Assembly (NCBI GenBank): GCA_965285935.1
Contig: OZ260661.1
Span: 93,000,001 to 93,064,000 of the forward strand
Length of the DNA stretch: 64,000 bases
DNA from: Ophelia neglecta
Lineage: Eukaryota
Reading direction: 5' to 3'
The translations under genes and the position numbers were made by a program. This document shows positions 1 to 51,450 of this stretch, one piece after another. Position 1 is the stretch's first letter. Each line of letters starts with the position of its first letter. The notes under the pieces are model-generated. The model was not told the origin of the DNA. It saw only the letters and a program-made list of their open reading frames with translations, and made no database searches.

Positions 1-264
1 GACCTGTTGGTCCGCGTTCTCCACGCTGTCCGTTGTTACCGGGCCTTCCTGCTTCACCAGGACCGCCCTGGCTTCCTTGCTCTCCTCGTTGTCCACTGGG
101 TCCAGCAGGGCCAATTGGTCCGGGTGGTCCGACAGGTCCAGATTCGCCTCTCTCGCCTGCTGGGCCGGCAGGGCCCAGGGGTCCAGCCGCTCCTGCGGGA
201 CCGGTGGGGCCAGATGGACCAGCGCTTCCACGCGCTCCGGGAGTGCCAGGTTGTCCTCGTGGAC
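1..264 (-). CDS. Gene A collagen exon (truncated by window edge)
   Basis: tag acceptor then [12 protein letters not shown]... Confidence 0.9.
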
Positions 265-3200
265 CTATGCGAAGAGTTTTGAAAAAATATCTTCATCGAG
301 AATTTAGTATGATTTGTTTTTTAGCCAGGCTAATCATGTAAAAATAATATTTAAATATGCTATTATATTTACCACATAATAACTGCTTTCATGATGTGTA
401 TATCTATAAGGTCCTGGATTAATACTCAACATATGAACTCCTAAATCTATTGCACCTTATTATTAAGTTCAGTGAAAAAGCCTACCACTAGGTCCTGATG
501 GCCCTGGCCCTCCTCTCTCGCCTGGCTCGCCTCGGGGACCTGCAGGTCCGGCGCTGCCCAAGGAGCCAGTGGATCCAGGTGGTCCTACCGGACCCCTTTC
601 TCCTCTCTCCCCTATAACAATTGCAATGATTTTAATGTAAGTATTATCCCGTTATCGGTATGTAGACATTAATGGTAAATAATTCAGGTTACAAGCAATC
701 GATCTATGGTTATGGAATATTTATAAGTCAAGACCAATAGAATGATATATAAAGGCATATTTAACTATTAGAAAGTGAAGCTTCATACCTGGCGTTCCTG
801 ATTGTCCTCGTTCTCCAGCCGGGCCTAATGGTCCGGTTGGTCCTTGGGGTCCTTGTTCTCCAGCCGTTCCTCGAGGTCCTAATGGTCCGGCTGGGCCTAC
901 TGGGCCTCGCCTGCCTGGTTCTCCATTTGTACCTGGTGGTCCAGACGGTCCGGCAGGACCAGTAGGGCCCCTTTCTCCTCTCTGTCCAGGCTGTCCGCTG
1001 GGCCCAACTCCGCCAGCTGAACCAGGCTCCCCGCGCTCTCCCTGTGGACCTGCAGGTCCAACAGGGCCAGACGGGCCTAGCTGTCCAGACTCGCCGGCTG
1101 GTCCTCGCTCTCCTCTCTCTCCTGGAGTGCCTGGTTGTCCGCGCTCACCTCGGGGTCCAGGCTCTCCTACTTCTCCTGTGGTGCCTGCAGGGCCAGCTGG
1201 TCCGGCTTCTCCTCTCGGGCCTGGCGAACCTGCCTCTCCCGGAGATCCAGGCTGGCCGCTTGCCCCCTGTTCTCCTCTTTCACCAGCTGGTCCGGCGGGA
1301 CCGGCTGGGCCTAAAGGACCAGAAGAGCCCGGAGGTCCGCTTGGACCCCGTTCGCCTCTGCTTCCAGCAGGTCCCGATGGTCCCCTGGCTCCGGGTTCAC
1401 CTGGCTGTCCGGGCTGACCACGCTCGCCCGCAGCTCCTGCGGGTCCGGCAGGTCCTCTCGGTCCTGTACGTAATAATCAAATTACTTTTTATTGCATGTT
1501 AGGCAAATGCGTAGGCAAATAAGAACGATCACATCGAAGACATAAGCATTTTCATGTATAAGTTGAATGTAAAGAACAAGCTTAGTTCCATAGGAATTAA
1601 TAAGCTGGGAAATTTATTTTCAGTAATTCTTGTTTTTCTTTGGTTTCCCATACCTACCTTGTCTGCCAGGTGATCCTGGTAAACCTGATTCACCAAGAGA
1701 GCCCGGTGGTCCGGTTTCTCCACGGGAACCTTGTGCTCCGGCTGGTCCAATTGGTCCCTGTGTTCCAGGGGATCCATCAGAGCCTGCTGTGCCTGGGGTT
1801 CCCCTTTGACCCTGCTCTCCAGGGCGGCCCACAGCCCCTGTGGGACCACGACCGCCGCCAGCTCCTGGTGGGCCCGAGGGTCCTGATGGTCCCGCGGGAC
1901 CGGAAGGTCCTTGTAAACCTCTTTCGCCTGGTGTACCAACTTCTCCGGCAGGGCCAGCAGGTCCACGTTCACCCGCAGGTCCTTGTGGACCCAATGGGCC
2001 GCCAGGTCCTTCAAACAACAAAACAAGGTAAGATTAATTCATTATTTAATGGCCATCCGGAAATGTAGGTTTAAAAAAACATTAATAGGATTGGTACTGC
2101 TTTTTAGCTGATATTTTATTTATGAAAGCACTTAAGAATTTTGAGTTGTATGGCTTTGTAAACCTGGGTATTATGCCCCTAGTATACACAGGCTTTCAGT
2201 GTATGAGTGAGTGAGCCAGTACCTGGACTGCCTGGAGTTCCTCGCTCGCCCTGCTCTCCTCGCTGTCCTCGCTCTCCGGCGGCTCCAGCTGGTCCGAGCG
2301 GCCCTGTTGGTCCGGTGGGTCCGGATGGGCCCCTCTCACCTCGGGGTCCAGCGGGACCGGCAGGTCCTACTCCGCCAGCCTCACCCGCGTTTCCAGGGAT
2401 TCCGCGCTCTCCTGAAGGCCCGGCAGGTCCGGGTGGCCCGGTTTGTCCTAGAGAGTAGACAAGTACATTGAAGATGCCATGCATTATGACTTCAGTAACA
2501 CGTATACAAGTCCACTGTTAAAAATACGGCTAATTTAATTCATTTTATACAATAATAAAATTGCATTTGTTTTTCTTCCGATCTTTAGGTAGGCTAATCT
2601 ATCTGTCAAACCCATTTTTAATAAATTGTTTTGGACACATACAAATTCTTTCTGTCCGTGTAGAACAGAGCTTATTTAAGGTGAGTTAATTAAAGATCCT
2701 TAGATTAAAGATTTTGCCGAACCCGGTGGTTACAACGATTCATAATATATGTCTGCGTCTGTTCTATAAAAAATTTATTTCTTTTATTTCTTTAAATAAC
2801 TTGCACTTCTAATCGGTTGAAATCTGAACTTCTTACTGGGTTTAACTTGTGTTTTACTAGTATAAAATGAATTACCCCCCGGTTAAATTAGCAAAGATTT
2901 GCTTCGCTGCCGTTGTCAGTTTATTTATTCAATCTATATTATTTATTAAATTGAGACTTTATTTGATGATATTAAGCAATAGTTCGCGTGAATTAATTGA
3001 AGATTCAACAGGCGTTATCATGGCGGATCATAATCATAATGAGAGAAACATGTATAGTGTGTATGTCTTCCCTGTAATTAATAGGAAAGCATCTAAATAA
3101 TTATATAATTAATCAATCTAATTACCAGAGGATCCATCACGGCCGTCTTCACCAGGCTCGCCGGCTGGTCCAGCCGGTCCGGCTGGCCCTCGTGGTCCGC

Positions 3201-6200
3201 TCTCTCCTTGTGGTCCTGTAGGTCCCTGTGGGCCGGAGGGCCCGTCAGCGCCGGCTGGTCCTCTAGGTCCCGTGGGACCCGGTAATCCGGCCGGGCCGGC
3301 TGGTCCGGCCTCGCCTGCGGGACCGCGTGGTCCTGTAACGGTAGGACCGTCCCTGCCAGGTTGGCCAGTTGGTCCACGGCTTCCTCTCTCTCCAGGCTCA
3401 CCGCGTTCTCCTGCTGGGCCGGCAGGTCCTCTCTCACCAGGCTGTCCGGTAGGTCCCGATGGGCCATCTTCACCTAGACAAAAAAAACAATTGAAAAGAC
3501 ATTTAGAGCCGCGAGCAAGGGTATGTGCGTTCCATGGGCACACTGACGAAAGCTTTCATAATCAAAAACACCAAAGAAACGTGGTTAATATCATTACACA
3601 TTTCAAATGTAAACGCATAATAGGTATAATATTTACCTCTTGATCCCTGGGTACCCCTCTCTCCTTGAGCACCACGCTCGCCAGCGGCTCCCGCAGGCCC
3701 GGATGGACCTGGCTCGCCTCGGCTACCAGCCGGTCCGGCGGGTCCAGTTGGCCCTCTTTCACCAGCAAGTCCTGGAGAACCGCCTTCACCGGTTTCTCCG
3801 GATGGACCTGCAGGTCCTGAGGGTCCAGCAGGTCCGACAGGTCCAAGTGGTCCACGTGCGCCACCAAGACCAGGTCTTCCTGACTCTCCCGCTTCGCCAG
3901 ATGGTCCAGAGGGCCCAGTGGGCCCTGGAGGTCCGATTGGTCCAGGTTCACCGCCTTGTCCTGTTGGTCCTCGGGGACCGGACTCTCCTGCAGATCCGTC
4001 GGGTCCTCTTTCCCCGGGTGGCCCAGTCTGTCCACCAGAGCCTGGCGATCCGCGCTCTCCGGCAGGCCCAGCAGGCCCTGGCCGTCCGTCAGGTCCAGTT
4101 GGCCCTGAGGGTCCTGCGCTTCCTCGGGCTCCTTGCTCCCCAGCAGGTCCGCGTGGGCCTTGCTCGCCGGTTGGTCCTGGACCTCCACGTTCGCCTGAGG
4201 GTCCCGCAGGACCGCGTGATCCAGTAGCCCCTGTAGTAAGTGACAAATATTAGTAAAACAATCTTAAAATCAATGTTTAGTTTCTAACAGTTTCCCAAAG
4301 CCAATACATCCATATAAAATATACTACTATGAAAATCAAACACTTTTAGAAACTGAAATGCAGATTCAGAGATGTTAAATATCTTTAAACTTTACCTGGT
4401 AAACCTACAGGTCCCCGTGCGCCTCCGCGTCCGGGTTCTCCTCTCGGCCCAGCAGGTCCTGCAGGTCCCGCCGGTCCGGTTGGTCCAGACTCACCAGGAG
4501 GTCCCTGAATGCCTCGCTCACCGCCGCCAGTAGCACCAGCAGGACCTGGGAAAAAGATAAAGGATTACAGGTCATTGTGGCATTCTTCACCCCTGACTGT
4601 GATGCCACAAAGCCGCCATGCATATAACTTAATTGAATTGCGTCCAACATAATCAAGCCTTTATAAAAAGAGTCTTTCATATTAATTGATTGAAAATTTT
4701 GTTATAGCAAACCAAGGCTGCGATGACTCCTTCCTTGGTGTGGAAAACATACAAGAAGGGGCTAGGCCAAGGGCCAGTACTTGCAAGACCCGCAATTATT
4801 ATCAACCCGATGGCATGTCACATCTTTAAGGTGTACTCAGTTCAAGAGTAGCAGACGGCAATTCAGCGCCCTCTGGTGTTCAAACTTATCTCAAAAAGAA
4901 ATTAACAGTTTATATGTGTACCTGGTGGTCCGACGGGTCCTGGCTCTCCACTCTCTCCAGGTTCTCCAGCTTGGCCTCGAGATCCACGAGATCCAGCCGG
5001 ACCTGGTGGGCCTACTGGCCCAGATTCCCCAGACTCGCCCGCTGGACCAGCTGGACCCGCAGGCCCAGTTTGTCCTCGAGTACCTTGGCCGCCTGGCTCA
5101 CCGCCAACTCCAGGTTCTCCGGCCGGTCCGGCCGGTCCTTGATGGTTAAAAGGGAGGATAATATTAAGTAATGAGTTATGAACATAAAATATATTTACAT
5201 AGCGATGAAAGTTAATACATGCATATTTTCAGGCAATCAGACACCACTCACCTGTTGGTCCCCTTGGTCCAGCCTGACCGGGAGGTCCTTGGCCTCCTCT
5301 CTCGCCAGATAACCCAGCAGGCCCAGCTGGTCCCAGAGGTCCTGGTGGTCCCACGGGCCCAGTGCCCCCAGGAATACCAGACGGTCCAGGCTGTCCAGTT
5401 GAACCAGTTGACCCATCCTGACCTGAGGGTCCAGTGGGACCGCGCTCTCCCGTAGGTCCAGCGGGTCCTCTTTCTCCTCGTTGCCCTCTTGGCCCAGTTA
5501 AACCAGATGGTCCCACTGGTCCTCGTGATCCTCTTTCACCGCCTGGTCCTGGCTGTCCTCTCGGACCCGTTGGGCCAGGTGGTCCTCGTTCTCCTGCTGA
5601 TCCGATACCACCGGACACACCAGGAGTTCCTCTCGGTCCTGCAGGTCCCAGAGGACCCGGCTGCCCGGGGAACCCGGCTTCACCTCGCTCGCCAGCTATT
5701 CCGGCTGGTCCTCTTTCCCCTCTTGGGCCTGGTGGTCCCACCGGTCCCACAGGTCCGGATTCTCCAGCAGTTCCAGGTGGGCCAGATGGGCCTAAAAGAA
5801 AGTACACGAAACAATATGCAGAAGGTGTCTAACAGGCATAATTCATGCATCGAGCCATAATTTTTTGAAGTACATCTGAATACAAATTAACCTAGTGTTT
5901 ACCTGCCTGTCCAGGGAGTCCATCACTTCCGTCTTGTCCAGGGAAACCAAGAGGTCCAGGGGGTCCTTGAGGTCCCCGTGAACCTTCCGGCCCAGCGGGA
6001 CCAGGGCCTCCTCGTTCACCGGGTGAACCTGGTATTACAGATTAACACAGCTTGACACATGCAGGGTTTCATTAGTCTAGGATTCGTACGAAAAGACAGC
6101 TAGGTCTATAGCGGTATATTTTATATTTGAAAGGCGTATAGGCTTATTTTTCATCTTTAATCAAGCCTATTTAAGAACAATCTCATGTTTTCGGAAAAAA

Positions 6201-9200
6201 AATTAACAACATTGCTGGGTATTATTAGATAATACGTCTCAAACATAGGGTTATTGATTGAACTGTAGACGTGGTATTACCAACTGAGCCGCCAGGTCCT
6301 CTCTCTCCCTGCGCGCCAGCTGGTCCGGCCGGTCCGAGTGGGCCTGGACGTCCCGTTGCACCAGTTCCACCCACCTGCCCGCGCTCTCCACTCTCTCCTC
6401 TAATACCGGCGGGTCCTCGTGGGCCTTGTTCTCCCTGCTCCCCGGGACCGCCGGCTTCTCCCGCAATGCCTCGTGGGCCTGTGGGTCCGGCTGGTCCTCG
6501 TGGACCTTGTTATGAAAAAATATACACTTATTTAACAAATAATGGACACAGCTACGTGTTGAGTTTAACTGCAATCATTTTAAGCGGACAGAGAGTTACC
6601 GGGATAATATATTTTGGACAGCTTCTTGCATAGCTTTACATTAGAATTTTAAAACACCTGTTGGTCCGACGGGTCCTCTTGTTCCGGGCTCTCCAGCAGG
6701 ACCTGCGGGTCCGGCTGGTCCGAGAGGTCCTGTCGGGCCTCCAATGCCAGGACCACCTGAGGGTCCCCGCTCGCCCCGCTCCCCAGACGCTCCGGGAGGT
6801 CCCAATGGCCCAGTGGGCCCTGATGGGCCAATGCCTCCAGCGTCACCGGCTGGACCACTGGGTCCAGTGGCTCCCGGAGGTCCAATCTGTCCGATTGGTC
6901 CTGACTCTCCTACTTCTCCACTGGGTCCTGGTTGTCCTCGGGGTCCCGGGCGGCCAGATGGGCCCGGTCCGCCAGGAGAGCCTCGCGGACCTGACTCTCC
7001 ACTCGCTCCCGCAGGTCCAGTTGGCCCTAGTTAACGATAAACACTACGTAGAGACACTTGCGCTCCTCACAATACCTTTACTATGTATACAGGTCTTTTT
7101 TTTTCAGTAATAGCCTATCTAAAGTCTAATGTACATCAATCATCTCGAGTTTTCTCGAGTCTCACTTTTCTATACATCTTTATTGACATGATAAAGCGTC
7201 AAATTATTAAATCCAAGCCCTTAAAAGCTCAAGACCTAACCTGTTGGACCAGCTGGTCCCGCCTCCGAGCCCCTGGGTCCTTGTGGTCCTCGTTCTCCTG
7301 GTGGTCCTACAGGCCCTAGGGGTCCAGCCTCTCCGGCTTCTCCAGAGGGTCCGGGTGGTCCAGCAGGTCCTCTTGGACCTTGGAAGCCCGGGCCTCCGAC
7401 TGGACCCGGTAGACCCGTCTCACCAGACTCCCCGGCTGGTCCTGCAGGTCCAGTTGGCCCGAGTGGGCCACTAGGACCGGAAACACCTGCCTCTCCGGAT
7501 GGCCCGGAGGGGCCGGCTGGCCCGCTTGGTCCTGCTAATCCTTGTTCTCCTGGAGGTCCCCCTTCTCCCGCTGGTCCACTGGGACCGGCTGGTCCTGTTG
7601 GACCAGGCAGTCCTCGTATCCCTGGTCCTCCACCTTCACCTGGCTGACCTGCGGGTCCAGCAGGGCCACGCAGTCCAGATTCACCTGGCGCGAAAACAAT
7701 TTAGAAGTTAATTCCGAGTGCGTGATGAGGTGTAAACTTCCTCTGCTTCAATGAAACGTAGAATGTATCATACATACTATTTGAGCTTAAAGATAGATTA
7801 CCGAGCTACTGCTATCCTTGTTGAAAAAACAAGTCGTATTTTGAAATAAGGCTAATTTACTTTGTGTGTACCCTACCTGGAGGTCCCGATGGTCCCGAGA
7901 TGCCAGGAGGTCCTGGTTCGCCTCGTTCTCCGGTGGGGCCGGCTGGCCCAGCTGGTCCGGGTTCAGAGCCTGGTGGACCGATCTCTCCACGTGGTCCAAG
8001 CTCTCCTCGCGGTCCAGGGGGACCAGTTGGTCCTGCTGGTCCCTCCGGTCCTGACGGTCCCGGAGGGCCGGATTGGCCGTCAAATCCTGGGCGACCTGCT
8101 TCACCTGGTGGTTCAACAAATATGTACATCAATAATAGCCAATTAGGTTATTATACTTGCACTTGCTGGCACATTATTAACACAAAAATCCTTTCAGAAA
8201 TACACCATTCAATTTTCCGTAGACATTTGTTGAGAAATTATGTGAGCGTACCTGGCCCTCCTGGGAATCCTGCTGGTCCTCTCTGTCCTCTGGGTCCTAA
8301 TGGTCCCAACGGCCCAGGTGGTCCCACTGGTCCTCTCTCACCGCGCTCTCCGGACTCTCCAGCAGGTCCTATTGGACCGGTGGGTCCCAGGCCACCGGGT
8401 CCGCCCGCAGGACCTGCGGGGCCTGAAGCCCCTGTTGCTCCGTTACTTCCATCGGCTCCCGGCGGGCCTGGTGGCCCATCAATTCCACGGGTTCCCTGTT
8501 CACCTCTTGGCCCGGATGGTCCTGAAGGTCCAACAGGTCCCCTCTCACCACCGAAGCCTGGTCCTCCAACAGGTCCCGCTGGTCCTCTCGGCCCCGGAGG
8601 TCCGACATTGCCAATGCCTCCAGGTGGCCCAGATTGTCCTGGTGATCCGGATGGCCCACTTTGTCCGATGGGTCCAGGTCCGCCTGGCCCTCCTCGTATA
8701 CCCTGGGGTCCTGCCGGTCCCCTTGGTCCTACTGGTCCAACAGGACCGTCGGCACCTGGCGATCCAGGTCCCCCTGTCTCACCAACAAATCCAGGTTGAC
8801 CCGTTTGTCCCCTCTCTCCAGGAAAGCCGGCGGGTCCTGCATGGTGATCAGTCAAAAGCGAACAGCATTAGGCTATAATTTATTATGCTAGATTAAGATT
8901 CCTGGTGGGAAATTACTATAAAGCGTGCTCAATAATACTTTGGGAATAAAATATTTTGTGTTAACTAATAACTCTGGAGAGTTGCAAGGGAAAGTCACAT
9001 ATAGATGGTTTGGAAATGAAAGCCTTTTTCGTTTCTCGAAACGAGCACCAGAGATATTGAATTAAGAAGGAAAACTTCAGGTCTTGAAAGAATTATATTC
9101 ACTGTAATGTAAATTGGCTGTTTGCCACTAATGCGTACCTGGTGGTCCGACTGGACCGATTGGTCCACGCGGTCCTGCTGGGCTGCTTCCTGGCGGGCCT

Positions 9201-12200
9201 GACACGCCGGGCTCGCCGGGTGGTCCTGAAGGGCCGGCAGGTCCTCTGGGTCCAGGTTCACCCGCAGGGCCGCTTCTACCCACCTCACCTGCAAAAAAGC
9301 AATTTATTTTGAACACATGTAGATCAAGAGAGCGTAGCACTAGCTGTTGTGGTCCTATCTAAATCTTACCGCAATACGAAATCGCCAACTGCGCAGATCA
9401 TAGAAGTAGTTTTGTATTTCTTACCGCTTGATCCGGGTGATCCAGCTGGACCGGAGGGGCCGGTCGGTCCACTTGGCCCAGACGGTCCTCTTTCCCCTGA
9501 AGGCCCAGCTGGTCCAGCAGGTCCAGGTCTGCCTGAGGGTCCTGTTGGTCCCCTTTGCCCAGTTGGTCCTGATTGAGTTCCATCGGGTCCCCGTGGGCCA
9601 GTGGGCCCTGGCGGGCCGATGGGTCCAGGAAATCCCGGGCCGCCGCTGATGCCAGGCGGGCCTCGGAAACCGGGCTCACCTGAAGGTCCGGCTTGACCAG
9701 AAAACCCTGGTCCGCCTGGTCCTCCTGCGGGTCCGGCCGGTCCGCGTTGTCCTCGGTTACCTTAAAAAGAATCAAATATAACAATAGTTCCATTACAAAT
9801 GGTTGAGCAACTCAGTCCCAATGTTTCTGTTCCCAACTTCCGGTTATTTATTCTAGACATGTTAGGCCTAGGCCCTAATAGATTTCTTCAAAGTAGGAGT
9901 AGTCATATTCCACATATGTGACACTATATTATATTATATTTTTTACCTGATGGTCCAGTTCGTCCAGGTGGTCCAATTGGTCCTCCAGGTCCTGCAGGTC
10001 CTAGCTGTCCACTTGATCCTGGAGGCCCTACGGGGCCTCTTCCTCCGGCCGGTCCAACGGGTCCAGCTGGTCCAGCAGGTCCGGATGGTCCTGCTAGGCC
10101 TACTTCACCTGGCGAGCCAGGTCCACCCGGAGGCCCAGGAAATCCGGGTCGGCCGGGTGGGCCACGTGGGCCGGGTTGACCTGGTTGGGAGCCGCGTGGC
10201 CCTGTACCGCCTTTGTCTCCAGCGGGTCCTCGTGGCCCCGCTGGTCCAACACTACCTGGGGGACCACTGGGTCCTTGAGGTCCGGGTCGTCCAGCTGGGC
10301 CGAGAGGTCCTCGTCCGCCGGGAGGTCCTGTAGCACCTGAAGAGCCTGGTGGCCCTCGAACGCCATCAGTGCCCGGTGTCCCGGCCGATCCGGCAGGACC
10401 AGTTCCTCCTGTTGCGCCTCGGGGACCACCTGGTCCAGGCGGTCCTATAAGAAAACCCATGGTATCAAGCGCTTGACATGCAATTCAGATTTAATAACCA
10501 TACAAATTTAACCTTTAATTTACGGTTCTACAAGGAGGTTGCTATTTATCTCCTTTTAAAGAAGAACAACTGACAGCCAATCAAATGTATTTTTAAAAAG
10601 ATTTGTCTTTCTTTTAAATATAGATATACATTTCTATCATTAATAGGCCTTATATGAATCTAATTGTGAATAAAGAAGTAAAATCAAGAAGGTCAATGAC
10701 AAGGTCTTACGTTATATAAAATCAAGCATATTCCGCTTCATGTATGGTGTAATTAAGACTAATTAAATTATCGTTTTCTAATTTGATATGAACCGCATTT
10801 GGGTATATTTTATTCATGCTGTGCATGTGTAATGATTAGGTGCATGAGGGTAAGGGACATTCATTTGCAACAGCGATTTGTTTCAATTTTTAAAGATAAA
10901 TGGGATATCGAATGACGTCCTGCAAAACAGCAATTATATACTATACTAGCATCTATAGTTGAAGATATTAATAATACAAAGGTTGTCTTTCACAGAAAAA
11001 TCTTACAAAACACAATTTTAGCCCCTTCGAGCGAAGTTTCCTGTTATAACTTATCTTTCCGGAAATATTTTAGAACACTTTATCTGTGAAAGACAGCCAG
11101 TGGTAAGGAGAAAGGGCACCCAGTTTGAAGAGACAAATCATTTTCATACTGTGCTCAAATATGTTTCATCGTGCAGGGATAATTTGTGAACTAAAATCAG
11201 ATGGTCACTGACAATGGTGTCAGAGTTACTAATTTTTCAGTGCGGTGAGTAGTACAGAGATAGCTCATTCTGGCGCAGACGATACATGCAAGAGATAAGT
11301 AGCAGTGACCATATGGTTTTATTTCATTTTTAAAGCCTGCAGTAAATATGGATTTATGCGTTTAACTTTCAAACATATAGATCAAAATCATGTCATTTAT
11401 CATCTTTGGGTGCGCTTCATCCTTGATGTGACTTATATTACAGTGATTTGTGCATATTGATGTTGTTTGATTGCCAATATAGCCGCGCAATATAAAGAAC
11501 ACAGCGCAACGCAAGAAAATGTATAGAGGGTTGGGGCGTTGCGGTAAACTTCGTCCTATACCTGGAATGGGTACGGGGCCTGGGGCTACAATGTATCCAG
11601 GACAGATGGTCCTCATCAGTCTTTCGACCAGGATCTCTCTCTCCCGAGCGGAGCCATAGCCCTCAGATACGTAGTAGGCACGACTGGTGGTTGAGGCGAT
11701 CACCTGGAGGGCCCCCAAATTGATTCCCGATCCAAAGCCTACAGAGGTGATGACGATGTTGTTATCCACTCTAGCTCTATTCAGCTGAGTTACAAACTCT
11801 CTCTCCGGCTCTCGGCCCATGATGACGATGGCGAAATCGGGGATTCTTGGTCGATCTCCCCGGCCTCCACTGAATATGCTATCGGTCATCACCCGGAGTC
11901 CCTCGTCCAGGAAGTGATCGGATCGACTCATCCTGCTAAGGGTATTGATTCTTTGTCGCACCTCCAGATTGGTGTAGTAGCGATCAAGGTAGAATGACAC
12001 CTCCCCTACGCTACTATAGCGGACGGTTGAAAAATGAACATTAGGCTCGCCGATAGTGAACTGTTGGGAGAGGAGACTTGCAAGATCTCTCATTGAGTCC
12101 CACAGCAGGTTGGAGAGGTCCTCTCCGGCGTCCAGCACTATCGCCACATCGCTGAGGTTCCGACATCCTGTGCGGATATGAAAAGCAATTATTGTTTGAA

Positions 12201-14882
12201 AAGAAAAAGCGCCAGCAAGCGTGCCGCATCTAGCGAACCGCTAGCCATCACCTACGCATGCGCAACAGAATAACGAGAAGCGATGCATGTTGAACGCTAC
12301 ACGACAAACACAATGTAAATAAACCTCTAGAGTACACATGTGCCATACAGGAGTTAAACCAAAAGTAGCAATCACGCTTTTTTAAATAGTAAATATCTCA
12401 ATAGGCGTATTCACATTGCGTGTGTCGTGCAATGAAACGCAGCATAAAGCGCACGCGCAGAAGCCATACTTGTACAGGAACCCAGGTGATGGAGTACCCG
12501 AACAGGCTACATTTTATCTTTGGAGCTTCCTCTTCTTTGTTTTCTGGCGAATAGATATCTGCCTACATTGAAAGGAGGAAGCGCACATCACATAGAGTGA
12601 TGAAGGTCAAGTTCTAGCAGAACGCGTTGTAGACAGAGGAGAGGCGGAGTGATATCTGTACGCCCTAAAGATCTCGCAGGATCATATGCTTTTGACAGAT
12701 CAAATGAGATAAAGGCATGCAACGATCCGATGAAGCTGAAATTTAAGAAATATTTGATGGTTGTCAATGGACACGCGCACACACTAAATGCTCGAGTAAA
12801 ATTACCTGTTCCGAGTACACGTTGGTCGGATCCTGAAAAATGCGAATATTCCTCGTCATTAATTAAGGAAGCCATTGATATACATGTGTGGACAGAATTT
12901 GGGAAAATAATTCACTTGATTCATGGAGATCACGAAAACTTGTTTGTTCGCGAATAATCTGAAGAACAAGGAGACATTTTATTTAGGCCCTATTGATAAT
13001 TAACGAAATCGGGAATTTCATGAATTTCGACCAATGACGTATCAAGTGTTCGACGGCGACTTTATCTTCATGGGTCTACATGTATTAAACTTTACTGTCG
13101 CACACGATTTATGTGTTTTAAATCATTCTATTAAACAATACATGTACTACAATAATGACTAATGACCTATACCTAATCTAAAGGCCACGCCACAAGCATT
13201 TGAAGAAGGCTCTGTATGTACCAGGAAGTTGGTACCAGGAATGGGGTATCCATCTATTACATGCCACTGGCAGATATAGGCAGTGAGATAAGAGTGAGGA
13301 GGGTTATCACAGAAAATGGCGATGTATCTATATATTGAGGTGGAAGATGGGATTGAGCGTATTGAATACGAGATGAAGGGCCTAATGACTGGATATGGAG
13401 AGAGCTGGATGGGGTTGGGGAGACCCTCGGCCTGGCGGTTAAAGTGAGACGGGCAGCCCCTGGATATCCCCTTGTTCCGATGCTTAGCTTGTGAATATTA
13501 GATGTGGAATGGATGGGTTTGTCATAGTGAGAAGATATAATCGAAACATCGCCTTCCAAATGTGTTGATTTGAAGATCATATTGAATATTAGGGGACTAT
13601 AGACCGGGGTCTTTTCGAAATTCATGAACAACAAATAGGCTTACTAAATGATTGCTATACATTTATTAAACCCATGTGCTTCTTTTTGTAATGGAATTCA
13701 CGAAATTCACGGAAACATCGACATGATTATATCATTTGTGTTGGGAATTCATTTTTCTTTTTGTCATCATTTCACTTGTGTAATTGTTTCCTTTTATAAG
13801 TTTGAAATGGTTGATTTTTTAATCTCTAATTCACGAATTAACAGTGTTCATTATCTCCCAAATCCTGTCCATCTCTGTGGATTGTACAAGGCCAATTATT
13901 CTCAGAGTTCTAGGCCTCTGACGTCATCTCTCTGACGTCATCTCCAACTCGCGATAAGGAACTCCTAAATCTCAACTCTCTAATTACGCAGTAAATATTA
14001 TGAAATTAAATTTTCTAATGGCAAAATATGAAAATAAACTGTGAGAAAATGTTAGAAATTAAGATAAAATTCAAAGTAGTCGAAATGAAATTTAGTGTAC
14101 ATTTGACATGTCTATAGTTGCACATATTATGTATAATCGTTTTAATTCAATAATCGTCGGATCCAATATAAGTCGAAGAAAAAGAAGACATAATAATTTG
14201 CCTTCAATGCAATAAGTATGAAGTATCAAAAGCAGACGATATTTTTGCAACTAATAAGACGAAATGACAGGCATCATAAACTAATTCATTTCTCTACTTG
14301 TGCAGGACTATTTGTTTAAAGATTAAACAAGATATGTAAGTCTGTTGAATCAAAAAGTGGGAAAAAAAAACTACTCGAAGAGTAAACTGATCTTGGGTTG
14401 TATTTCTGCTTATTATTTCATTCATCAATAAGATTAAGATTGGAAATTGCTTCTATGCAAAATGGGACGCATTCTTATTTCGAAAATATTCGAGTGATGT
14501 GACTGGTTTGCAGTGGTAACTCAGGTTATTATCTGAGATGTTATGTGTAAATAATTAAACAGGGAATTAGAACTTGGTCCAGAAAAACTCATTCATTTTA
14601 CAAACAATCCAATGATCAGTAAACTCTAGAAACAGATATGTAAAGAAAACGGAAATAAATATAATTAAAAAAAAACGTAACAGTTAACAGTTGGTTTAAC
14701 ATGAAATTAACTATAAGTAAATCGAAGTACTATTAGAACTAAGAAAGAACGTGACACTAAACTAAAGGTTGGTGCGTGGTCTAGATTATCTTACCTTGTG
14801 CATCTATGACTGTCACGAAATTGAACATGAAGATGAACGCCAGAGCACAAGCTCTGGCGTCCGCTAATCTTGGCGGTCGCAT
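1..14882 (-). CDS. Gene A: secreted giant collagen alpha chain with N-terminal vWA domain (multi-exon, 3' end outside window)
   Basis: Spliced GT-AG model: 14882-14795 (signal peptide), 12167-11562 (vWA), then Gly-X-Y exons 10444-9947, 9760-9425, 9288-9139, 8836-8252, 8104-7877, 7684-7241, 7026-6658, 6505-6281, 6028-5903, 5791-5252, 5137-4922, 4545-4396, 4230-3637, 3473-3126, 2447-2223, 2008-1658, 1463-789, 611-486, 264-<1. All junctions are phase 1 and keep the frame; ~2150 collagenous residues lie in the window. Confidence 0.93.
486..611 (-). CDS. Gene A collagen exon, 126 nt (14 triplets)
   Basis: Gly-X-Y, AG/GT flanks, phase 1-1. Confidence 0.9.
789..1463 (-). CDS. Gene A collagen exon, 675 nt (75 triplets)
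   Basis: Gly-X-Y, AG/GT flanks. Confidence 0.92.
1658..2008 (-). CDS. Gene A collagen exon, 351 nt (39 triplets)
   Basis: Gly-X-Y part of ORF 1620..2021, AG/GT flanks. Confidence 0.9.
2223..2447 (-). CDS. Gene A collagen exon, 225 nt (25 triplets)
   Basis: Gly-X-Y part of ORF 2179..2484. Confidence 0.9.
3126..3473 (-). CDS. Gene A collagen exon, 348 nt, with GPTVTG interruption
   Basis: Gly-X-Y part of ORF 3118..3543. Confidence 0.9.
3637..4230 (-). CDS. Gene A collagen exon, 594 nt (66 triplets)
   Basis: Gly-X-Y part of ORF 3503..4246. Confidence 0.92.
4396..4545 (-). CDS. Gene A collagen exon, 150 nt, with G-G-GER break
   Basis: [14 protein letters not shown]...GLP, AG/GT flanks. Confidence 0.88.
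4922..5137 (-). CDS. Gene A collagen exon, 216 nt (24 triplets)
   Basis: Gly-X-Y, AG/GT flanks. Confidence 0.88.
5252..5791 (-). CDS. Gene A collagen exon, 540 nt (60 triplets)
   Basis: Gly-X-Y part of ORF 5229..5807. Confidence 0.92.
5903..6028 (-). CDS. Gene A collagen exon, 126 nt (14 triplets)
   Basis: Gly-X-Y, AG/GT flanks. Confidence 0.88.
6281..6505 (-). CDS. Gene A collagen exon, 225 nt (25 triplets)
   Basis: Gly-X-Y, AG/GT flanks. Confidence 0.9.
6658..7026 (-). CDS. Gene A collagen exon, 369 nt (41 triplets)
   Basis: Gly-X-Y, AG/GT flanks. Confidence 0.9.
7241..7684 (-). CDS. Gene A collagen exon, 444 nt, with GSEAG interruption
   Basis: Gly-X-Y, AG/GT flanks. Confidence 0.9.
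7877..8104 (-). CDS. Gene A collagen exon, 228 nt, with GSEPG interruption
   Basis: Gly-X-Y part of ORF 7857..8132. Confidence 0.88.
8252..8836 (-). CDS. Gene A collagen exon, 585 nt (65 triplets)
   Basis: Gly-X-Y part of ORF 8238..8855. Confidence 0.92.
9139..9288 (-). CDS. Gene A collagen exon, 150 nt, with GSSPAG interruption
   Basis: Gly-X-Y part of ORF 9128..9340. Confidence 0.9.
9425..9760 (-). CDS. Gene A collagen exon, 336 nt, with GTQSG interruption
   Basis: Gly-X-Y, AG/GT flanks. Confidence 0.9.
9947..10444 (-). CDS. Gene A first collagen exon, 498 nt, with GSQPG interruption
   Basis: Gly-X-Y part of ORF 9924..10460. Confidence 0.92.
10981..11098. mobile_element. Small MITE-like element with ~20-bp terminal inverted repeats
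   Basis: GGTTGTCTTTCACAGAAAAA ... TTTATCTGTGAAAGACAGCC (18/20 inverted match) in a gene A intron. Confidence 0.5.
11562..12167 (-). CDS. Gene A vWA domain exon (606 nt, phase 1-1), degenerate MIDAS
   Basis: [17 protein letters not shown]...[10 protein letters not shown]...[17 protein letters not shown]...ITSVGFG...LQVIAS...ICPG; typical vWA pattern with flanking Cys. Confidence 0.92.
12806..12832 (-). CDS. Candidate 27-nt phase 1-1 microexon of gene A (GSDQRVLGT)
   Basis: tttttcag acceptor and CAG|gtaatt donor; in frame between the signal and vWA exons; no transcript evidence. Confidence 0.35.
14795..14882 (-). CDS. Gene A start and signal peptide (exon spans 14930-14795)
   Basis: [29 protein letters not shown]|G; G|gtaag donor; polypyrimidine-cag acceptor at 14931. 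Confidence 0.85.
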
Positions 14883-15158
14883 TGTGCGGGTCACTTATTT
14901 TGCGGATCTATAACGTTTTCTTCACAAAATCTGACAAAAAGAAGAAAATATTTTGTGTTGTATAGTTAAGCAAAAATGTTTTTTGAAATCTGAGATATTC
15001 TGTTAACATAAGAGGATATTAAATCTTAGTTAGATGCCAAGTTTATTTTCTGCGACCTAGTATGGTTTGACTCTCTGGCGCAATGCGATAAATGGTAGTA
15101 GTAAACGAAAGAACAACTACAAAGAACAGCAGAAAGTAGTGTATGGTATAATTACCTT

Positions 15159-15194
15159 CTAAACATTCAGTCCCGCGTGACTATCTCGATACAT
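15159..15194 (-). promoter_or_regulatory. uORF MYRDSHAGLNV* in gene A 5'UTR
   Basis: ATG...TAG followed by AAG|GT; positional counterpart in gene B. Confidence 0.6.
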
Positions 15195-15230
15195 GTCCTT
15201 CAGACCCGCTAAAATGTGTTTTTTTTACTC

Positions 15231-15331
15231 AGCCCTATAGGCCTGGTCGGGCCTTGTCTGGACAACTGGCTCCCGCCGTTCACGAGGCTCAGCTAAATCA
15301 GACAAGGCCTTCCGACGACTCGCCTTGGCTA
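15231..15331 (-). promoter_or_regulatory. Conserved 5'UTR RNA stem-loop element, copy A
   Basis: 11-bp stem GGCCUUGUCUG/CAGACAAGGCC (15309-15299 with 15260-15250); shared with gene B copy. Confidence 0.8.
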
Positions 15332-18300
15332 CCGTTCGGAAAGAAAACCGAACTCACCTGGAAAACATAAACGGAAAACATGAACACATCAGATCGTGAT
15401 CACAGATGTGTGCTATCGGTATTTCCTTTGGCGGGGGTGACATTTTTAGGAAATTCAAGATGATATGAATAATTCATTCAAGATAATATTTAAAATTCAT
15501 AAATCATGTAATAGTTATTTAAACTTCGCATTTCCCATCATTCTCCAACCATGTTTGTACACCCTGCAATTAATGGTTTAATACAGAAAACAAGTACGTG
15601 GCTTATGATTTGCAAGTTAATAAAAAGTATCTTAACACATTGGTTTCGTTTGTATAATTTATATCTACATCGTTCCGGGGACAGAAGAAACACAATTGTT
15701 TATTTAACCTTGTTATAATAAAATACTGCGCTGGTAATGTTTGACTTTTGATATTTTTATTTCAGTTTATTTTACCAACTACAAAACTACTGATGAAAAC
15801 AGGTCCTACTAGATAGAAGCGAGGCGCACACCCGTAACGTGTCAGCCTGACCAAGTTTTATCACAAACTGGCAAATCGTGACCACAAAATACAAGTCGTT
15901 ACTATGTCTGTCTTTTTTTGACGTCTGCAGTTTGAAGGGCTCATGATGAACGAGCTTGTGGTTTTTAACTTTATATGATGAATGAAAACGACTTGCTTTT
16001 AATCTAAAAATACTACAGAGAAATAGTTTGGTTACATAACCAAAACCAAAAAACACTTATGTATAACTTTACCAGCGACAGTGTTTTTTCAATAATTTCA
16101 GACAAGTAGGTTTTCTACTTTATTTTATTTTTTTAATGCGTGAACCGGTTGAAAAGTTTATTCAATAAGCCTAGAGATGTAAAAATACTGACAAATTCGG
16201 GATGCCACAGCCCATTGACATGAGACTCCTTGCCAAAATATCCCTTTTTGTTACTACCTTACCATGCAGGACAATAGCTTCCCCCATCTCCAAAGATGCA
16301 GTGACTTAACCGACAAAGGATTCAATTTATCGTTGCCTAGACGTCAGGCGAGTTAATTACTTGCTTGTATTTAAAATATTAATTAACGCTTAATTGTCGT
16401 CTTTATTTTGTAGGACCGTCTCATTAGCATACACAGACGCTAATTCAACACAAGAATTGTAGCTTAAAAGTTTATACCTTTCTATATTTAACAAATATAT
16501 GTTAAGTTTTTACACGTTAATGACTCCCCGCTTTAGCCTTGTGCCGTAGGGTGATCTTGTATTTAAGGGACACGCGCCACGATTGTGGAATACAATCCCA
16601 CAGAACACTTAGGCAATGTTCTGTGCTGGGTGTTTAATAAAAGATATCTAAAGTAATATCTAATGAAAATTGCCTTCGATTTGTTATGTCTTAATATGTA
16701 AACTAATGTTATTAGTGGCAGTGTTCAAGTAATCATGGGACATACTTTACCCTTAGTTAGGTTTCATAAATAATATTAACCAGGTCTTCCCTGCCTAATT
16801 TACTATTATAACAAAATTACTTGTGGCTTTGCTAATTACACTGTAGTATTAATGATAAATAAAACTCGAGAACCAATGTCGGGAAAACTTGTAAAATACA
16901 TAATGAAAGCAAGCATCTGTTTCGTTATTTTATTCCTACGAAGAGGCCTGAGGGGTATGATGAGACACGTAAATATACTTTAATTCTTCAACATGACAAA
17001 TTGACATAATCGTTTCAGAAATGATACGAGTAGCTTGCTGGAGGCTATAGATTCGACATTGTCCATCCATTCGTTTCTCTTTGGCTGTAGGTTATGGAAC
17101 GTATTTGCTATAAATATGACACCCTGACTGACAGGTACGGGTCTGTATAGAAGCGCAAGTCTTTACTATTTCAACTATAGGCATACTATAGTATTTCATA
17201 ACCAAACATAACGTTTTGTCCGACAATATACAGGCCTAGCTACATGAATATTGGTAACACCGCAGTTCAGCAATGCTAACAACAAATTTCACTGAGTATG
17301 AAATGCTGCTTGTATTCTGAGAATCATCGATGCTATATTCACATTTTCATCATTGATTAATTTCGTGGAAACCAAAATATATATGCATAGACTAGATTTT
17401 CTACCTGTGAAGAACTAGACCTACATGGGCATGAGACGAATTCTGCTGGTCAGTGCGTTCATTGAAGAACGGACATTTACCAGATGAATGAATGTTTAAA
17501 GGACGCCCTGCCGATTTATTTAAAGTTTGACTGGAATAACAACAAAAGACTTGCTTCAATATAAAGCCTTAGTGTCATCAGCACCATGATTGAGCTTTTA
17601 GTTTCAACCTTATATAGAATGGGCGCCAATGCATAAAAACCCTTCGTGCCACTGAATGGAAGTTGGAGAGATCGGAAGGGAGTTCAACATAGGTTAACTC
17701 TACAGGAGTTGCTATGGGTGGTCAGAGATATGTGCTCTGGTCCTTCTTTATTGCAAAATTCTTTTTTTTTTCTTCAGATAAAAGCTTCAGAATGATTTAG
17801 ATAATTAAGCCCGGCACTAATACAAAATGTTCACGTGTGATAACCAAATATGGCTTTTAAAAACAGGGTGATAATTTTTCTAGTGTTTATTATTGTCGTC
17901 TGCAGATGAATGTCAATTTACAAGGACGTATATTTCTGTTCCTTATTTCATTTACCCCAAGAAAAGCAACAAGTTTTGAAGGTCATGACCAGATTTCACT
18001 TGGAAGATGGGGAGATGACTTTCTTCCCTCCATCCCCACCCGGACGCCGCCGAAACTCCCCTGTGACCACTCATGGATGGAAAAATAATGGCTATGGACA
18101 AATCTGCCAGCCTCCAACCGACACAAAAACCGCCAATATAGGCATCTAAACATATAAATCATCGTATCCACCATAGCCATTTTCATATAGACCTATGGTG
18201 CCAGGACTATCTATTGTGCCAGGACTATCAGTGCGAAAATCAGAGCGTTTGGGTAGCAAAGGAGGATATATATGCCTAGAATGTTATACACTAAGGGTGG

Positions 18301-31000: not shown

Positions 31001-31693
31001 ACAAAGCACTAACCCACCTCTCACCTGATCTTCAGTACGTACCTAACTCAATCAATCTTACATATACCTAGCCACCTCATGGCTGACAATTGGTTCAGTA
31101 CATGTTTTTTCTAATGCTCAGATTCCAAAGCTACTGTTATGACATGAGACGACAAAAACCCCTGAGATTGGTTCAACCAGTGTGTAACACGGGGTAATAC
31201 CTATGTCTAACCCACTGTAGTCTCCTATATAAACACCTAGGTGCGGGCTTATAAACCAGATAACATCAGGACAATAAAAAGTGACACAACCACAAGTTCG
31301 TTCGCTATACATCTGTACTAGAAAAATGACTGGATCGGCCAGAAACGGAGACCGCATTTTGAAAACAAAGGTGCCCTTAATAATGTTTTGTGGCTGAAAA
31401 GCTGACAGTATAACTTAAGATATTTAAAATTGATGAGGGGGAACTTTTAAAACAAGGATGGTTATAATGATGCTTTGTATTTTGTTTTTGCGGTGAATAG
31501 AACATGGTTAATCAAATCTTTAGATATATAAAACAGAATTTTGAATTGAGCATCCAACCCTAAGATAAAATGGTTTGGTAAATGCTGTTCCTAAAAACAT
31601 CTCCTTCCATCTAGGTAAGTGTCGATATTCCATCAAGGAACCATCTCGCACCAACAGCATAAACATCTTTTCCCTCATCGTGGATTTATAGTA

Positions 31694-31864
31694 CAGTGAA
31701 ACCTGCCTTAAAGACCACCTCTGTTATCAGACTACCTGGCAATTCAGACCACTAATATCAGTATCATGCTTTCAATGGGAAATAACCTGTCTAAACAGAC
31801 CAACTCCGAAATCAGGCCAGCATTGTCAAGTCCCTTGGGTGGTCTTAATTCACAGGTTTCACTG
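31694..31864 (+). mobile_element. Tc1/mariner(pogo)-type MITE, family 1
   Basis: TA-CAGTGAAACCTG...CAGGTTTCACTG-TA; internal AGACCA sub-repeats; homologous to 37689-37866 and 38386-38743. Confidence 0.85.
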
Positions 31865-32046
31865 TAATGCCAAAAAGATGATAATTTCTGGTGATTGTAA
31901 TTGTTGTCTGAATGAATGTGAGGGGGGAATTAAACCACCAGCTAGAAAGCAAAGGTTCAATCACCTGAGAAACACAACGACTCCTAATCATAACCTAGAA
32001 TAAGCTGGATAAGCATGTTTAGACCCTATAAGTATAAACTCCACTA

Positions 32047-37305: not shown

Positions 37306-37688
37306 GTCATAATACATCCGGCCTAACGTACTGTACCGTCAACAAATGGTATAACGCTATGCTGGGTATCTAAGATTTATGCGGCCAGGATTTGAACAAA
37401 GCTTACTTCATTTGATCAAAATGCAATTTCATGAATTATAAATTATAATAAATGAAATAAACTAGGTTGGGTGGGTCGGTTAAAACATAAGTTGAAACAC
37501 AGAAAATACAAATAATTGCTGTTCACGCATAAATATAGGCTCATTGGCGTGAAAGGAACATCAATGACTGACAAATTAATTTAATACTAGAGTGTTTACC
37601 AATTCTAGCCAGCTAGTTTGCAATTGCAAAATACCTATGGCAGAGTGTCCGGTCCGGCTGGTACACAGACAGTGCTCGTTTAAATATA

Positions 37689-49410: not shown

Positions 49411-50967
49411 TCTATCACCTTTTATATGGGGAACGTCCATATTGAATAGGCCTATGGTGAAATAAATAGTTTTCACCCATCTCGCTATTCCTTTGCCGAA
49501 TACCATTTTTGATGGTAGCTGATTTTGAGACTTATAATTTAGCATAGTTAACTTACTAAAATTTAGGGTACCGTAGGGCATTTCTAAATAGGTACTTACG
49601 TACTAAACATCAATACATGTATATGTTTGTTATTTAACGCAAACGTCGTGTCTTACAGGCAACGAACAGAACTATCATCGGCACAATGCCAGCGTGATGC
49701 AATATTGGAAGTCTATACTGTAATTGACACCTTGAATATCACAGTGAACTTGTTGACAAACAGATAAAAATTGCTGAATTGAATGTTACATTGATAGTTC
49801 ATTCCTAGACTAATATTATGTTAATATCGGCCACCGAAAAGCAAAAGAATGTACACTGTACTTGGTAATTAAAGAAAAGACTACAGGAAAAATATTTGTA
49901 TACTTCTACAGCCAGAGTTCAGTCAACAGGGTTTTCTAGGAAAAATATACCTGAAACAGACAAAGGACGTGCAACGAAGCATCCTTTTAAAGAAAGACAT
50001 TGCTTCGTACTGCCTAATTGGATGATTATAGCGGCTTTACTACTGGACAATAGGACAATGCCAGATATCTTTATTTAAAAAGTATCACTGTTCGATATAT
50101 TCAAATGAAATACAAGCTTTGAAATGCATACTTAATGTTATTCCTGCAATGATTCCAGATTATTATTTTGGGTATTCATTTGCAAAAATAACATGGCCTT
50201 TCTGCTGACAGCTAGCCTGTGTCACAATAGGCCTAGTGTAAATTGTATTTTAAATTGTAATGCCTATGTACAAGTACAACAGGTGACCAGAAGGTCATTG
50301 TGATCATTATGCCATTAATATAAAACTCATTTGGCGTGGAACCAACTACCATAAATATCAAAACATATTTCGCCTTATTACCTTTAAACCCACCCACAAC
50401 GGTTAATTTGGTGCCAATATTTTTCATTCTAGTAAGCCCTATTCAGTAACATAAATAGTTCATTCATATGTTACAACTATGTATATGATTGAATTTTCGA
50501 CAATTATACTGAGTTGCATGTATGTCTATTACTGGATTGTACCAGTCCTATAGGTGAACCAGGGTTCACCTTTGTGTGGTTAAGCTCGCAAAAATGAACA
50601 GCCAAGGGAATTTCTTAACGTATTACTCGGTGCTGTAAAACATGGACAAATCCTACGATTCAGACGAGTAAACAAATGGTTTTTTTGGTTTCCCTTTACT
50701 ATTTCTTATTTTCAGTCAATAAATAACAGTGGCATACATATATATAAGTCCGTATTGCCTCCTGTTTAGGAGAGAACAGTCGTAGGGGTTAAACTAATGT
50801 GCTTTTAAAATAAAGTTAACAAGAAGTAAGTTATTTAAGTAAAATTAATGTTGTATACAGAGATACTACAATGCGCGATTTTGTCTTAAAATTTATTACT
50901 TATCAGTCAGAGGATCTAAACAACATTTTCTTTTGCTTTCAGGATCCCTTGAGCCTGTTGTTGAAGC

Positions 50968-51060
50968 GGCCAAGGTAGTCCATTGGAAGGCCTTGTCTGT
51001 CGTTAGCTACACCTGACAACTCGGGTGTTGGTTGTCCAGACAAGGCCCGTTTATAAGGCC
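50968..51060 (+). promoter_or_regulatory. Conserved 5'UTR RNA stem-loop element, copy B
   Basis: GGCCUUGUCUG (50989-50999) pairs with CAGACAAGGCC (51037-51047); upper stem ACACCUGA-caac-UCGGGUGU. Confidence 0.8.
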
Positions 51061-51126
51061 CGTCAAAATTGTTTCTATTGTCTGGTGCTTCGCCAGACAA
51101 ACTTAAAACGGGCAGCGAAGAAAGAA

Positions 51127-51156
51127 ATGAATAGTAGTCCCCTACTTGACCAGTGA
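51127..51156 (+). promoter_or_regulatory. uORF MNSSPLLDQ* in gene B 5'UTR
   Basis: ATG...TGA followed by AAG|GT. Confidence 0.6.
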
Positions 51157-51338
51157 AAGGTAAGAACTACTGCCAGTGTAGTAGTATGAACAACTTTCTA
51201 CACCGAACTACTATTTAAGTTAGTAGCGTGATGTGTCGAGTTCCGCCACAATCAAAGTAGACTCGTGTAAAATGTTTTTTTATAATTTGAGGAATACCAT
51301 ATTTAAAATATTTCCTTTTTTCATTGTTAGAGTTGAAG

Positions 51339-51450
51339 ATGGAACCCCCGGGGTCTTCTTATAGAAGGCCATTCGGGTCACGTGAGACCTCACGTACCTT
51401 TGTTGCTCTACTGTTTTTCCTGAATGTGATAATTACAAGCGGTCAGAGAT
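51339..51450 (+). CDS. Gene B start and signal peptide (exon spans 51331-51450)
   Basis: [37 protein letters not shown]; T|gtaagt donor. Confidence 0.85.

Follow-up and report, generated by a model that had tools for sequence, protein, structure and literature searches.

Interlocking charges and a shared length register suggest one heterotrimer from two head-to-head giant collagen genes of Ophelia neglecta

Do two giant collagen genes that lie head to head in the genome of Ophelia neglecta (762 Mb) encode the chains of a single triple helix? The question is raised by a stretch of 64,000 nucleotides, hereafter the window (positions 93,000,001-93,064,000 of contig C1, OZ260661.1), in which gene A on the minus strand and gene B on the plus strand diverge from start codons at 14882 (-) and 51339 (+), 36 kb apart. 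An initial annotation of the window had counted collagen triplets by hand, reported ten introns and one helix break in exact triplet register between the two chains, and read this as selection to stay in register, as expected for the chains of one heterotrimer. We modeled both genes in full from the window and 100 kb of flank on either side, with splicing scripted on the GT-AG rule; the boundaries were mostly picked by score, with eleven set by hand, and the exons are predictions from DNA. In both chains the predicted order is a signal peptide, a vWA region, a helix of ~8,650 residues, a coiled coil, a C-terminal transmembrane helix, and a tail. The spliced helices are free of stops and comprise 8,654 residues in A and 8,652 in B, i.e., ~2,885 triplet units with a computed length of ~2.47 µm (0.286 nm per residue), of which the window covers about a quarter in each gene. 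Our overall reading, which we consider probable, is that A and B are old head-to-head duplicates with interlocking charges, likely forming a B-A-B heterotrimer that is likely a giant cuticle collagen of ~2.5 µm.

Counting units as the initial annotation had done (GSS-PA and GPT-VT as two units each, 4-residue units as one), the script reproduced all ten shared introns, after units 199, 248, 289, 328, 388, 429, 495, 534, 559, and 687. The hand-read exon ends at these introns matched the scripted ones exactly, at 7877, 7241, 6658, 5903, 5252, 4396, 3637, 3126, 2223, and 486 (-) in A and at 57362, 58193, 58675, 59161, 59932, 60409, 61217, 61812, 62160, and 63538 (+) in B. Up to unit 687, these are 10 introns in common among 18 in A and 19 in B (hypergeometric P = 6e-13). 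As had also been claimed, no introns coincide before unit 199 (A: 55, 92, 109, and 174; B: 16, 84, 103, 130, and 170), and the two-residue G-X-G break falls at unit 415 in both chains by scripted count (GG at 4523..4528 (-) in A; GR at 60277..60282 (+) in B). The "exact register" holds in triplet units and fails in residues, where A minus B at the shared introns is +2 or +3. Six single-residue imperfections occur in A only, all within units 29-510: GSQP (10193-10182), GTQS (9581-9570), GSSPA (9190-9176), GSEP (7970-7959), GSEA (7271-7260), and GPTVT (3348-3334), all on the minus strand, the four 4-residue units among them not being named in the initial annotation. From unit 511 through to the C-terminus, the A-B residue offset is constant.

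The register, first described over ~690 triplets, was found to extend over the whole helix of ~2,885 units. Across it, 43 introns coincide among 66 in A and 57 in B, against a best of 5 at 600 other shifts, and the permutation test that the initial annotation had called for reached at most 8 shared introns in 100,000 trials as compared to the 43 observed; 37 helix introns are unshared (23 in A only, 14 in B only). Helix breaks are shared at five units, three of them two-residue breaks (415, 1419, and 2666) and two lacking a Gly with the length unchanged (1068 and 1732), and there are unshared Gly substitutions in A (one, 2181) and in B (two, 734 and 1527). Across its 2,885 units, the A helix counts 12 breaks and the B helix 7. 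The last intron is likewise in register in both genes; the distance between the first Gly and the transmembrane Trp is 8,692 residues in A and 8,690 in B.

A-B triplet identity is 10.5% versus a background of 5.1%, and third codon positions of Gly match at 0.384 versus 0.381, which indicates saturation. Given the low identity, the saturated third positions, and the 37 unshared introns, the duplication is old. Taken alone, shared introns and breaks are evidence of common descent only, and homotrimers, too, can maintain a helix of fixed length, as in fibrillar collagens. We therefore tested the contacts between the chains instead; the proposed heterotrimer under register selection, for which the shared introns alone were insufficient, found its support there, in cross-chain complementarity of Arg and acidic residues.

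Contacts were defined following the available text of PMC12533406: lateral contacts join Y of unit n to X of the same unit in the neighboring strand, whereas axial ones join it to X of unit n+1. Within the same unit, Arg or Lys at Y of A stood opposite an acid at X of B in 370 of 567 cases, and Arg or Lys at Y of B opposite an acid at X of A in 387 of 593; one unit on, B faced an acid of B itself in 495 of 593. Expectations for these three contacts were 132-140 (z = 25-37). The equivalent count from A to A(n+1) was 156/567 (z = 2), and Arg positions common to A and B numbered 142 versus 117 expected. In sequence terms, the offsets 0, 0, and +1 are those of the lateral ring of a predicted trimer ordered B-A-B, with two B chains and A in the middle. 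Scored in this arrangement, 1,252 of the 1,753 Arg were laterally paired (71%), while the other seven compositions reached 40% (each homotrimer), 53% (A-B-A, 913 pairs), or 39-51% (the rest). Together with its two cyclic equivalents, B-A-B was the joint best among 1,352 combinations of order and shift, and 500 block shuffles of A gave 761 pairs, at most 799. The preference was visible in the window alone (720 units), where B-A-B yielded 250 lateral pairs and the next best composition 182.

Several further measures point the same way. An unbiased mutual-information scan of 36 column pairings placed the three B-A-B contacts on top (0.38, 0.39, and 0.46), with the columns of descent at 0.32 and 0.13, and Arg in A predicted an acid in B even after conditioning on the acid of A and the motif of B (0.44 versus 0.03 in the plainest stratum). 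Among shifts from -3 to +3, shift 0 gave the most cross pairs in 18/18 segments; set against every distant shift, it was ahead in 15 of the 18, tied in two, and behind in the last. In units 1-200, with zero shared introns, charge matching was still 26/53. A hydrophobic cross-chain signal was looked for between A and B and was not found.

DNA from other sources allowed us to follow the B side further. Among 195 pattern matches in metagenome contigs, two are relatives of B, which we call L024 and L025. L024, with a tail identity of 33%, carries the B exon sizes 123, 108, 99, 216, 1377, 537, 603, and 612, plus a fused 450+711. Over 570 units it keeps 94/117 Arg at Y and 94/123 acids at X of B, but 17/125 Ser at Y and 1/42 Ser at X. 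When this B orthologue was set against A of the present genome, it complemented A across species in 52/102 and 68/120 cases (backgrounds 19 and 23). In L025 (1-6099), a B-like collagen frame without introns extends for at least 1,890 residues before it reaches the transmembrane Trp; it would be a transcript or an intron-less gene. In addition, three sequence runs compared with the locus gave DNA-like contigs without splice joints. In these runs, which may be the source sample itself, the B side was covered in 30/30 bins for two of the three, and none of six listed indels fell within coding exons (59% of the stretch). Among 20 listed sites checked (there being 48 further differences beyond the listing), 14 were exonic changes, none of which alters Gly, Arg, or Glu.

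Could the register be merely inherited, by homotrimeric paralogues in which indels are rare or the length is fixed by fibril packing? Introns and breaks taken by themselves would indicate descent, and the cross-species comparison covers relatives of B only. Yet between A and B, positions of like charge are retained for 25% of Arg and 36% of acids as compared to 65% for opposite-charge matching, and descent simulated at the observed like-charge retention gave a matching of at most 0.29 versus the 0.65 observed. Moreover, the peak for Arg against Arg is at shift -1 and that for acid against acid at shift +1, on opposite sides, so that no re-alignment converts the pattern to identity, and we consider mere inheritance very unlikely. 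An A-B-A trimer would use both cross-chain peaks too, as its 913 lateral pairs reflect, but the third contact is decisive, being strong from B to B(n+1) and near background from A to A(n+1). The complementarity might alternatively serve the side-by-side packing of separate A3 and B3 trimers; against this, pooling of axial and lateral pairs leaves A3 worse off than any other trimer (108 clashes, with 57% of Arg paired), and three sharp single-triplet peaks whose offsets add up to 1 agree with the geometry of the ring within a single helix. An A-B-A trimer or such packing is, in our estimate, quite unlikely.

A different possibility is that B is mainly homotrimeric and A a minor, optional middle chain, yielding a mixture of B3 and B-A-B. 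Upon pooling axial and lateral pairs, B-B-B in fact paired 89% of its Arg versus 87% for B-A-B, at 18 versus 16 clashes, and collagen I alpha1 homotrimers, which arise without alpha2 (PMC4615758, available text), offer a precedent; judged from these sequences, B3 may exist alongside B-A-B. However, 65% of B Arg lie opposite an A acid and the match is kept in L024, so B is tuned to A too, and the head-to-head layout and a hairpin common to both genes (see below) suggest joint expression. A predominantly homotrimeric B thus appears unlikely. Other observations also weigh against the B-A-B reading: The contact scores are pair counts, not energies; lateral cation-pi pairs were destabilizing in the available text of PMC12086834, where other residues are concerned; and the last 85 units gave 5/23 matches, with the best distant shift at 7. 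In addition, L025 is charge-poor (Glu 5 and Arg 19 per 1000), matches A weakly (11/113 and 17/42), and carries its two-residue break displaced by one unit (-700 versus -697 from the Trp), so the charge code read from the present pair is not universal. Could the pair instead reflect gene conversion, a duplication of recent date, or an artefact of assembly? El Hilali et al. 2025 (PMC12403961, available text) caution that misassembly of repetitive collagen is difficult to exclude, but silent sites are saturated, long-range self-repeats are absent from both chains (self-identity 0.067 and 0.086 at the best lag), the contigs described above cover the B side (with the proviso on their source), and the diverged relative L024 has the same exon sizes. 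We regard this explanation as exceedingly improbable. Overall, we hold with high confidence that the A and B chains form a heterotrimer, and it is very likely that B-A-B is the form that contains A.

How might chains of this size find each other and stay in register? The A helix ends at C1:92971126 (-) and its last exon runs from C1:92970893 (-); the B helix ends at C1:93089741 (+) and its last exon runs from C1:93089898 (+). No Pfam family, COLFI and NC1 included, exceeded the cut-off in the last exon of A or B. Both exons consist of a heptad stalk, a hydrophobic helix, basic residues, and a tail, with the Trp at residue 37 in both; the hydrophobic helix, C-terminal of the collagen, has a mean Kyte-Doolittle value of 2.3-2.9 over 19 residues. 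For the B transmembrane exon, 31 relatives came up at an E value of 0.001 or below, three of which (P0018, P0031, and P0037) carry a collagen end in the same frame; some of the 31 (e.g., P0036) look closer to a paralogue on contig C8 described below, so the set does not consist of B orthologues alone. For the A exon, all 4 candidates proved to be relatives, and the heptad phase is the same in the two families. An ESM Atlas query with the transmembrane exon gave a best score of 0.81, a lead only. With its N-terminal signal peptide and C-terminal anchor, the predicted topology is type I.

In the mechanism that we propose, the transmembrane helices and the adjoining coiled coil would trimerize in the membrane of the endoplasmic reticulum, replacing the C-propeptide and setting the register. 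A transmembrane domain was reportedly able to stand in for the C-propeptide in experiments by Bulleid in 1997. After trimerization, the helix would zip toward the N-terminus, and recurring salt bridges would safeguard the choice of chains and their stagger along 2,885 triplets; a whole-triplet indel in one chain would mis-pair all charges beyond it, and hence be purged. Release from the membrane would probably occur via cleavage near the stalk. Two observations were made at this end of the chains. The last 60 units of A and B are rich in Thr and Arg, with GAT/GRT triplets and with GWTG motifs, of which A has three and B has two. The Arg-Glu code is gone there; this helix end beside the stalk is a possible nucleation or cleavage zone. 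Within the stalk, the core d position 21 residues before the Trp is acidic in A (Asp in 5/5) and often so in the B family (Glu commonest), and this layer might possibly serve chain selection or ion binding.

The spacer between the genes holds a second shared element. Comparison of its two halves gave, a dispersed 180-bp repeat aside, a single 84-nt match (E = 2e-5). This match is a hairpin of 60 nt: Its lower stem of 11 bp is identical in A and B, an internal loop follows, and the upper stem, although different in sequence between the two genes, retains its pairing (two sequences compared). The A hairpin, with G-U pairs in its upper stem, lies at 15250..15309 (-) (z = -3.97) and the B hairpin at 50989..51047 (+) (z = -4.08); owing to G-U pairs, folding of the sense strand is 6.6 kcal/mol more favorable than that of the antisense. 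Its arm pattern occurs at two places genome-wide, which are the A and B copies. A DNA search of the genome with the B hairpin returned itself only, exact matches in metagenome contigs numbered 0, a degenerate pattern was absent from 200 kb of the C8 locus, and Rfam gave no match at E up to 1 in window positions 10500-54600. Splice-site matrices trained on collagen introns delimit a candidate noncoding 5′ exon around each copy, with exon status given by the splice scores: 15156..15357 (-) in A (acceptor 9.3, in the ~top 1% of 3,915 spacer AG sites; donor 6.0) and 50943..51159 (+) in B (acceptor 9.8; donor 7.1). The hairpin begins 48 nt (A) and 46 nt (B) inside these predicted exons, likely placing it in the 5′ untranslated region of both genes; neither copy contains an ATG, the start codons being in the following exon. 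Directly 5′ of the hairpin, CCAAGG is conserved between A and B. More speculatively, and by analogy with the 5′ stem-loop of vertebrate collagen I, the hairpin might couple the translation of the two mRNAs, an idea to which we give somewhat less than an even chance. A role at the DNA level, as a palindromic factor site, or as a pre-miRNA is another possible reading; the arms contain Smad-like and NR5A-like motifs.

A related membrane-anchored collagen gene in 20 exon blocks lies at C8:46005859-46032392 (-) (loci L027 and L029-L032), the paralogue searches in the genome having scored the best candidates only. It has ~1,720 triplets (~1.48 µm), Thr in 68% of its Y positions (GST, GAT, and GPT), and EGF-like modules between the helix and a B-like transmembrane exon. 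We considered it as a third chain and rejected it on account of these three features. Riftia cuticle collagen is 1.5 µm long, and its Thr is reportedly dominant, to go by the title of a 1996 report by Mann; the C8 paralogue resembles it in length and Thr content. Two short collagen-EGF-transmembrane genes lie divergent from the Thr-rich gene at C8:46105000-46121000 (+) (L039-L041), and apparently share an N-terminal domain with it. The fullest version of our proposal, in which a 2.5-µm cuticle collagen is a type I membrane protein with transmembrane helices in place of the C-propeptide, an Arg-Glu zipper encodes B-A-B along 2,885 triplets, a stem-loop in the 5′ untranslated region, of separate evolutionary origin from the vertebrate LARP6 element, couples translation of the two chains, and the C8 gene is of Riftia type, is one that we advance tentatively, as being rather less likely right than wrong in all its parts.

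The remaining features of the gene models are as follows. Gene A begins with a start codon and predicted signal-peptide exon at 14795..14882 (-), with a hydrophobic N-terminal stretch in the translation, followed by a predicted micro-exon of 27 nt at 12806..12832 (-) with AG/GT ends and phase 1 kept, one vWA domain in a single exon at 11562..12167 (-) (Pfam PF00092, E = 2.4e-21), and 67 collagen exons, of which 19 start in the window (1..10444 (-), units 1-717; stop-free, all introns GT-AG). Gene B has its start codon and predicted signal-peptide exon at 51339..51450 (+), again from the translation, and two vWA domains: the first at 51648..52583 (+) in exons 51648-51945 and 52300-52583 (PF00092, E = 1.4e-19 and 2.2e-11), the second at 53833..54441 (+) (E = 1.3e-34). 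Of its 58 collagen exons, 20 start in the window (54696..64000 (+), units 1-715; stop-free). The predicted full-length chains are 9,022 aa (A) and 9,263 aa (B). All 123 helix introns are GT-AG and 120 are in phase 1; for B, both properties hold in 57/57. A vWA homologue search, restricted to proteins of 355-2,000 aa, gave two unrelated vWA proteins, and ESM Atlas returned generic matches for the vWA query.

Lys is nearly absent from the helices (2 in A, 0 in B) and Cys is absent, while RGD occurs twice in A and seven times in B; no long-range periodicity was found in either chain. The first 240 units (window 54696-57400 and 10444-7900) have more Pro at X, more Ser/Thr at Y, and less charge, and the majority of the kinks of A lie within these N-terminal 240 units. 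In the host genome, the erythrocruorin linker family PF16915 exceeded its cut-off at 2 places, as compared to 0/14 control genomes, which marks the genome as annelid. An indoleamine 2,3-dioxygenase-like gene, a relative of which has PF01231, lies tail to tail with A (L007:6354-7760 (+)), and the other flanking DNA is mainly made up of fragments resembling long interspersed nuclear elements and of DNA transposons. The dispersed repeat of ~180 bp has inverted ends, like a miniature inverted-repeat transposable element, and lies at window positions 31691-31866, 37687-37868, and 38321-38745, with tandem copies near 38.4-38.7 kb.

What such a gene pair offers is a view of an unsolved problem, the slip-free folding of a triple helix 8.5 times longer than that of collagen I. 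Chain order is difficult to measure even in collagen I; here, order and stoichiometry would be readable from sequence, and ~1,250 natural lateral Arg-acid pairs would make up a rule set for the design of collagen heterotrimers. The C-terminal anchor suggests a way of spinning cuticle fibres at the epidermal surface, and the pair provides a sequence handle on a long-studied cuticle protein. Register between the chains of a heterotrimer is textbook knowledge and giant annelid collagens are in print, whereas the apparent novelties are the type I anchor, a B-A-B charge code that can be read along 2,885 triplets, and a hairpin common to both genes. In a literature search without subscription journals, we came across no description of the pair of genes, of the anchor, of the order of the chains, or of the hairpin.

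Annelid cuticle collagen, a product of the epidermis with hydroxyproline at X that has been under biochemical study since the 1970s, is 2.4-2.6 µm long and has two kinds of subunit, and the helix length of 2.47 µm agrees with this. Annelid cuticle collagens are described as very long helices with globular domains (PMC11766948, available text), and El Hilali et al. 2025 (PMC12403961, available text) describe alvinellid collagens (Alvinella and Paralvinella) that measure 7,719-8,859 aa, with a similar one in Eisenia, and Pro frequencies of 0.33-0.40 for G-P-Y and 0.22-0.33 for G-X-P. The present chains are alike in the long helix with globular domains, in size class, and in Pro frequencies (G-P-Y 0.39 in A and 0.44 in B; G-X-P 0.20 and 0.23), Pro being commoner at X than at Y in both, and it is quite likely that the A/B product is annelid cuticle collagen. 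In the available main text of PMC12403961, which reports length and proline content, the terms "VWA" and "transmembrane" have 0 occurrences, and there is no description of paired genes, of a register or an order of chains, of an anchor in the membrane, or of a hairpin.

Among better-known systems, collagen I resembles the pair as proposed here in combining paralogous chains 2:1 into a heterotrimer of fixed register, with a homotrimer of the major chain possible, and differs in its far shorter helix (1,014 residues) and in its COLFI propeptide, which is lacking here. COL4A1 and COL4A2 are head-to-head genes for one heterotrimer with aligned interruptions and introns that split Gly codons. The present genes share the head-to-head arrangement, the aligned breaks, and the split Gly codons, but lack NC1, have few breaks, begin with a vWA head and end in a transmembrane tail, and have 36 kb between their start codons. 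Unlike in fibrillar collagens with their 54-bp phase-0 exons, 2/125 exons here measure 45/54/99/108/162 nt, and the introns are in phase 1. Collagens VI and XXVIII combine a short helix with vWA domains on both sides and a C-terminal Kunitz domain, whereas vWA is N-terminal only in A and B. The MACITs (membrane-associated collagens whose triple helices are interrupted) XIII, XXIII, and XXV, as well as collagen XVII, have a membrane-anchored helix and a juxtamembrane coiled coil and are probably shed; A and B are predicted to share the first two features, with the difference that their anchor is C-terminal (type I), where the MACITs have a type II anchor and a cytoplasmic tail at the N-terminus. 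In the available text of PMC13138384, human membrane collagenous proteins are type II, and the type I topology is not found in human collagenous proteins. As to the hairpin, collagen I mRNAs share a LARP6-bound 5′ stem-loop (two stems and a central bulge) that favors heterotrimer synthesis (PMC4615758, available text); the predicted two-stem hairpin in both genes is similar in layout only, since the vertebrate stem-loop contains the start codon, while the hairpins here do not and match nothing in Rfam. Last, the designed heterotrimer peptides of PMC12533406 (available text) have their composition and register set by axial and lateral Y-to-X charge pairs, whereas the code proposed here would be a natural one, nearly all Arg-Glu and lateral, running across 8,650 residues.

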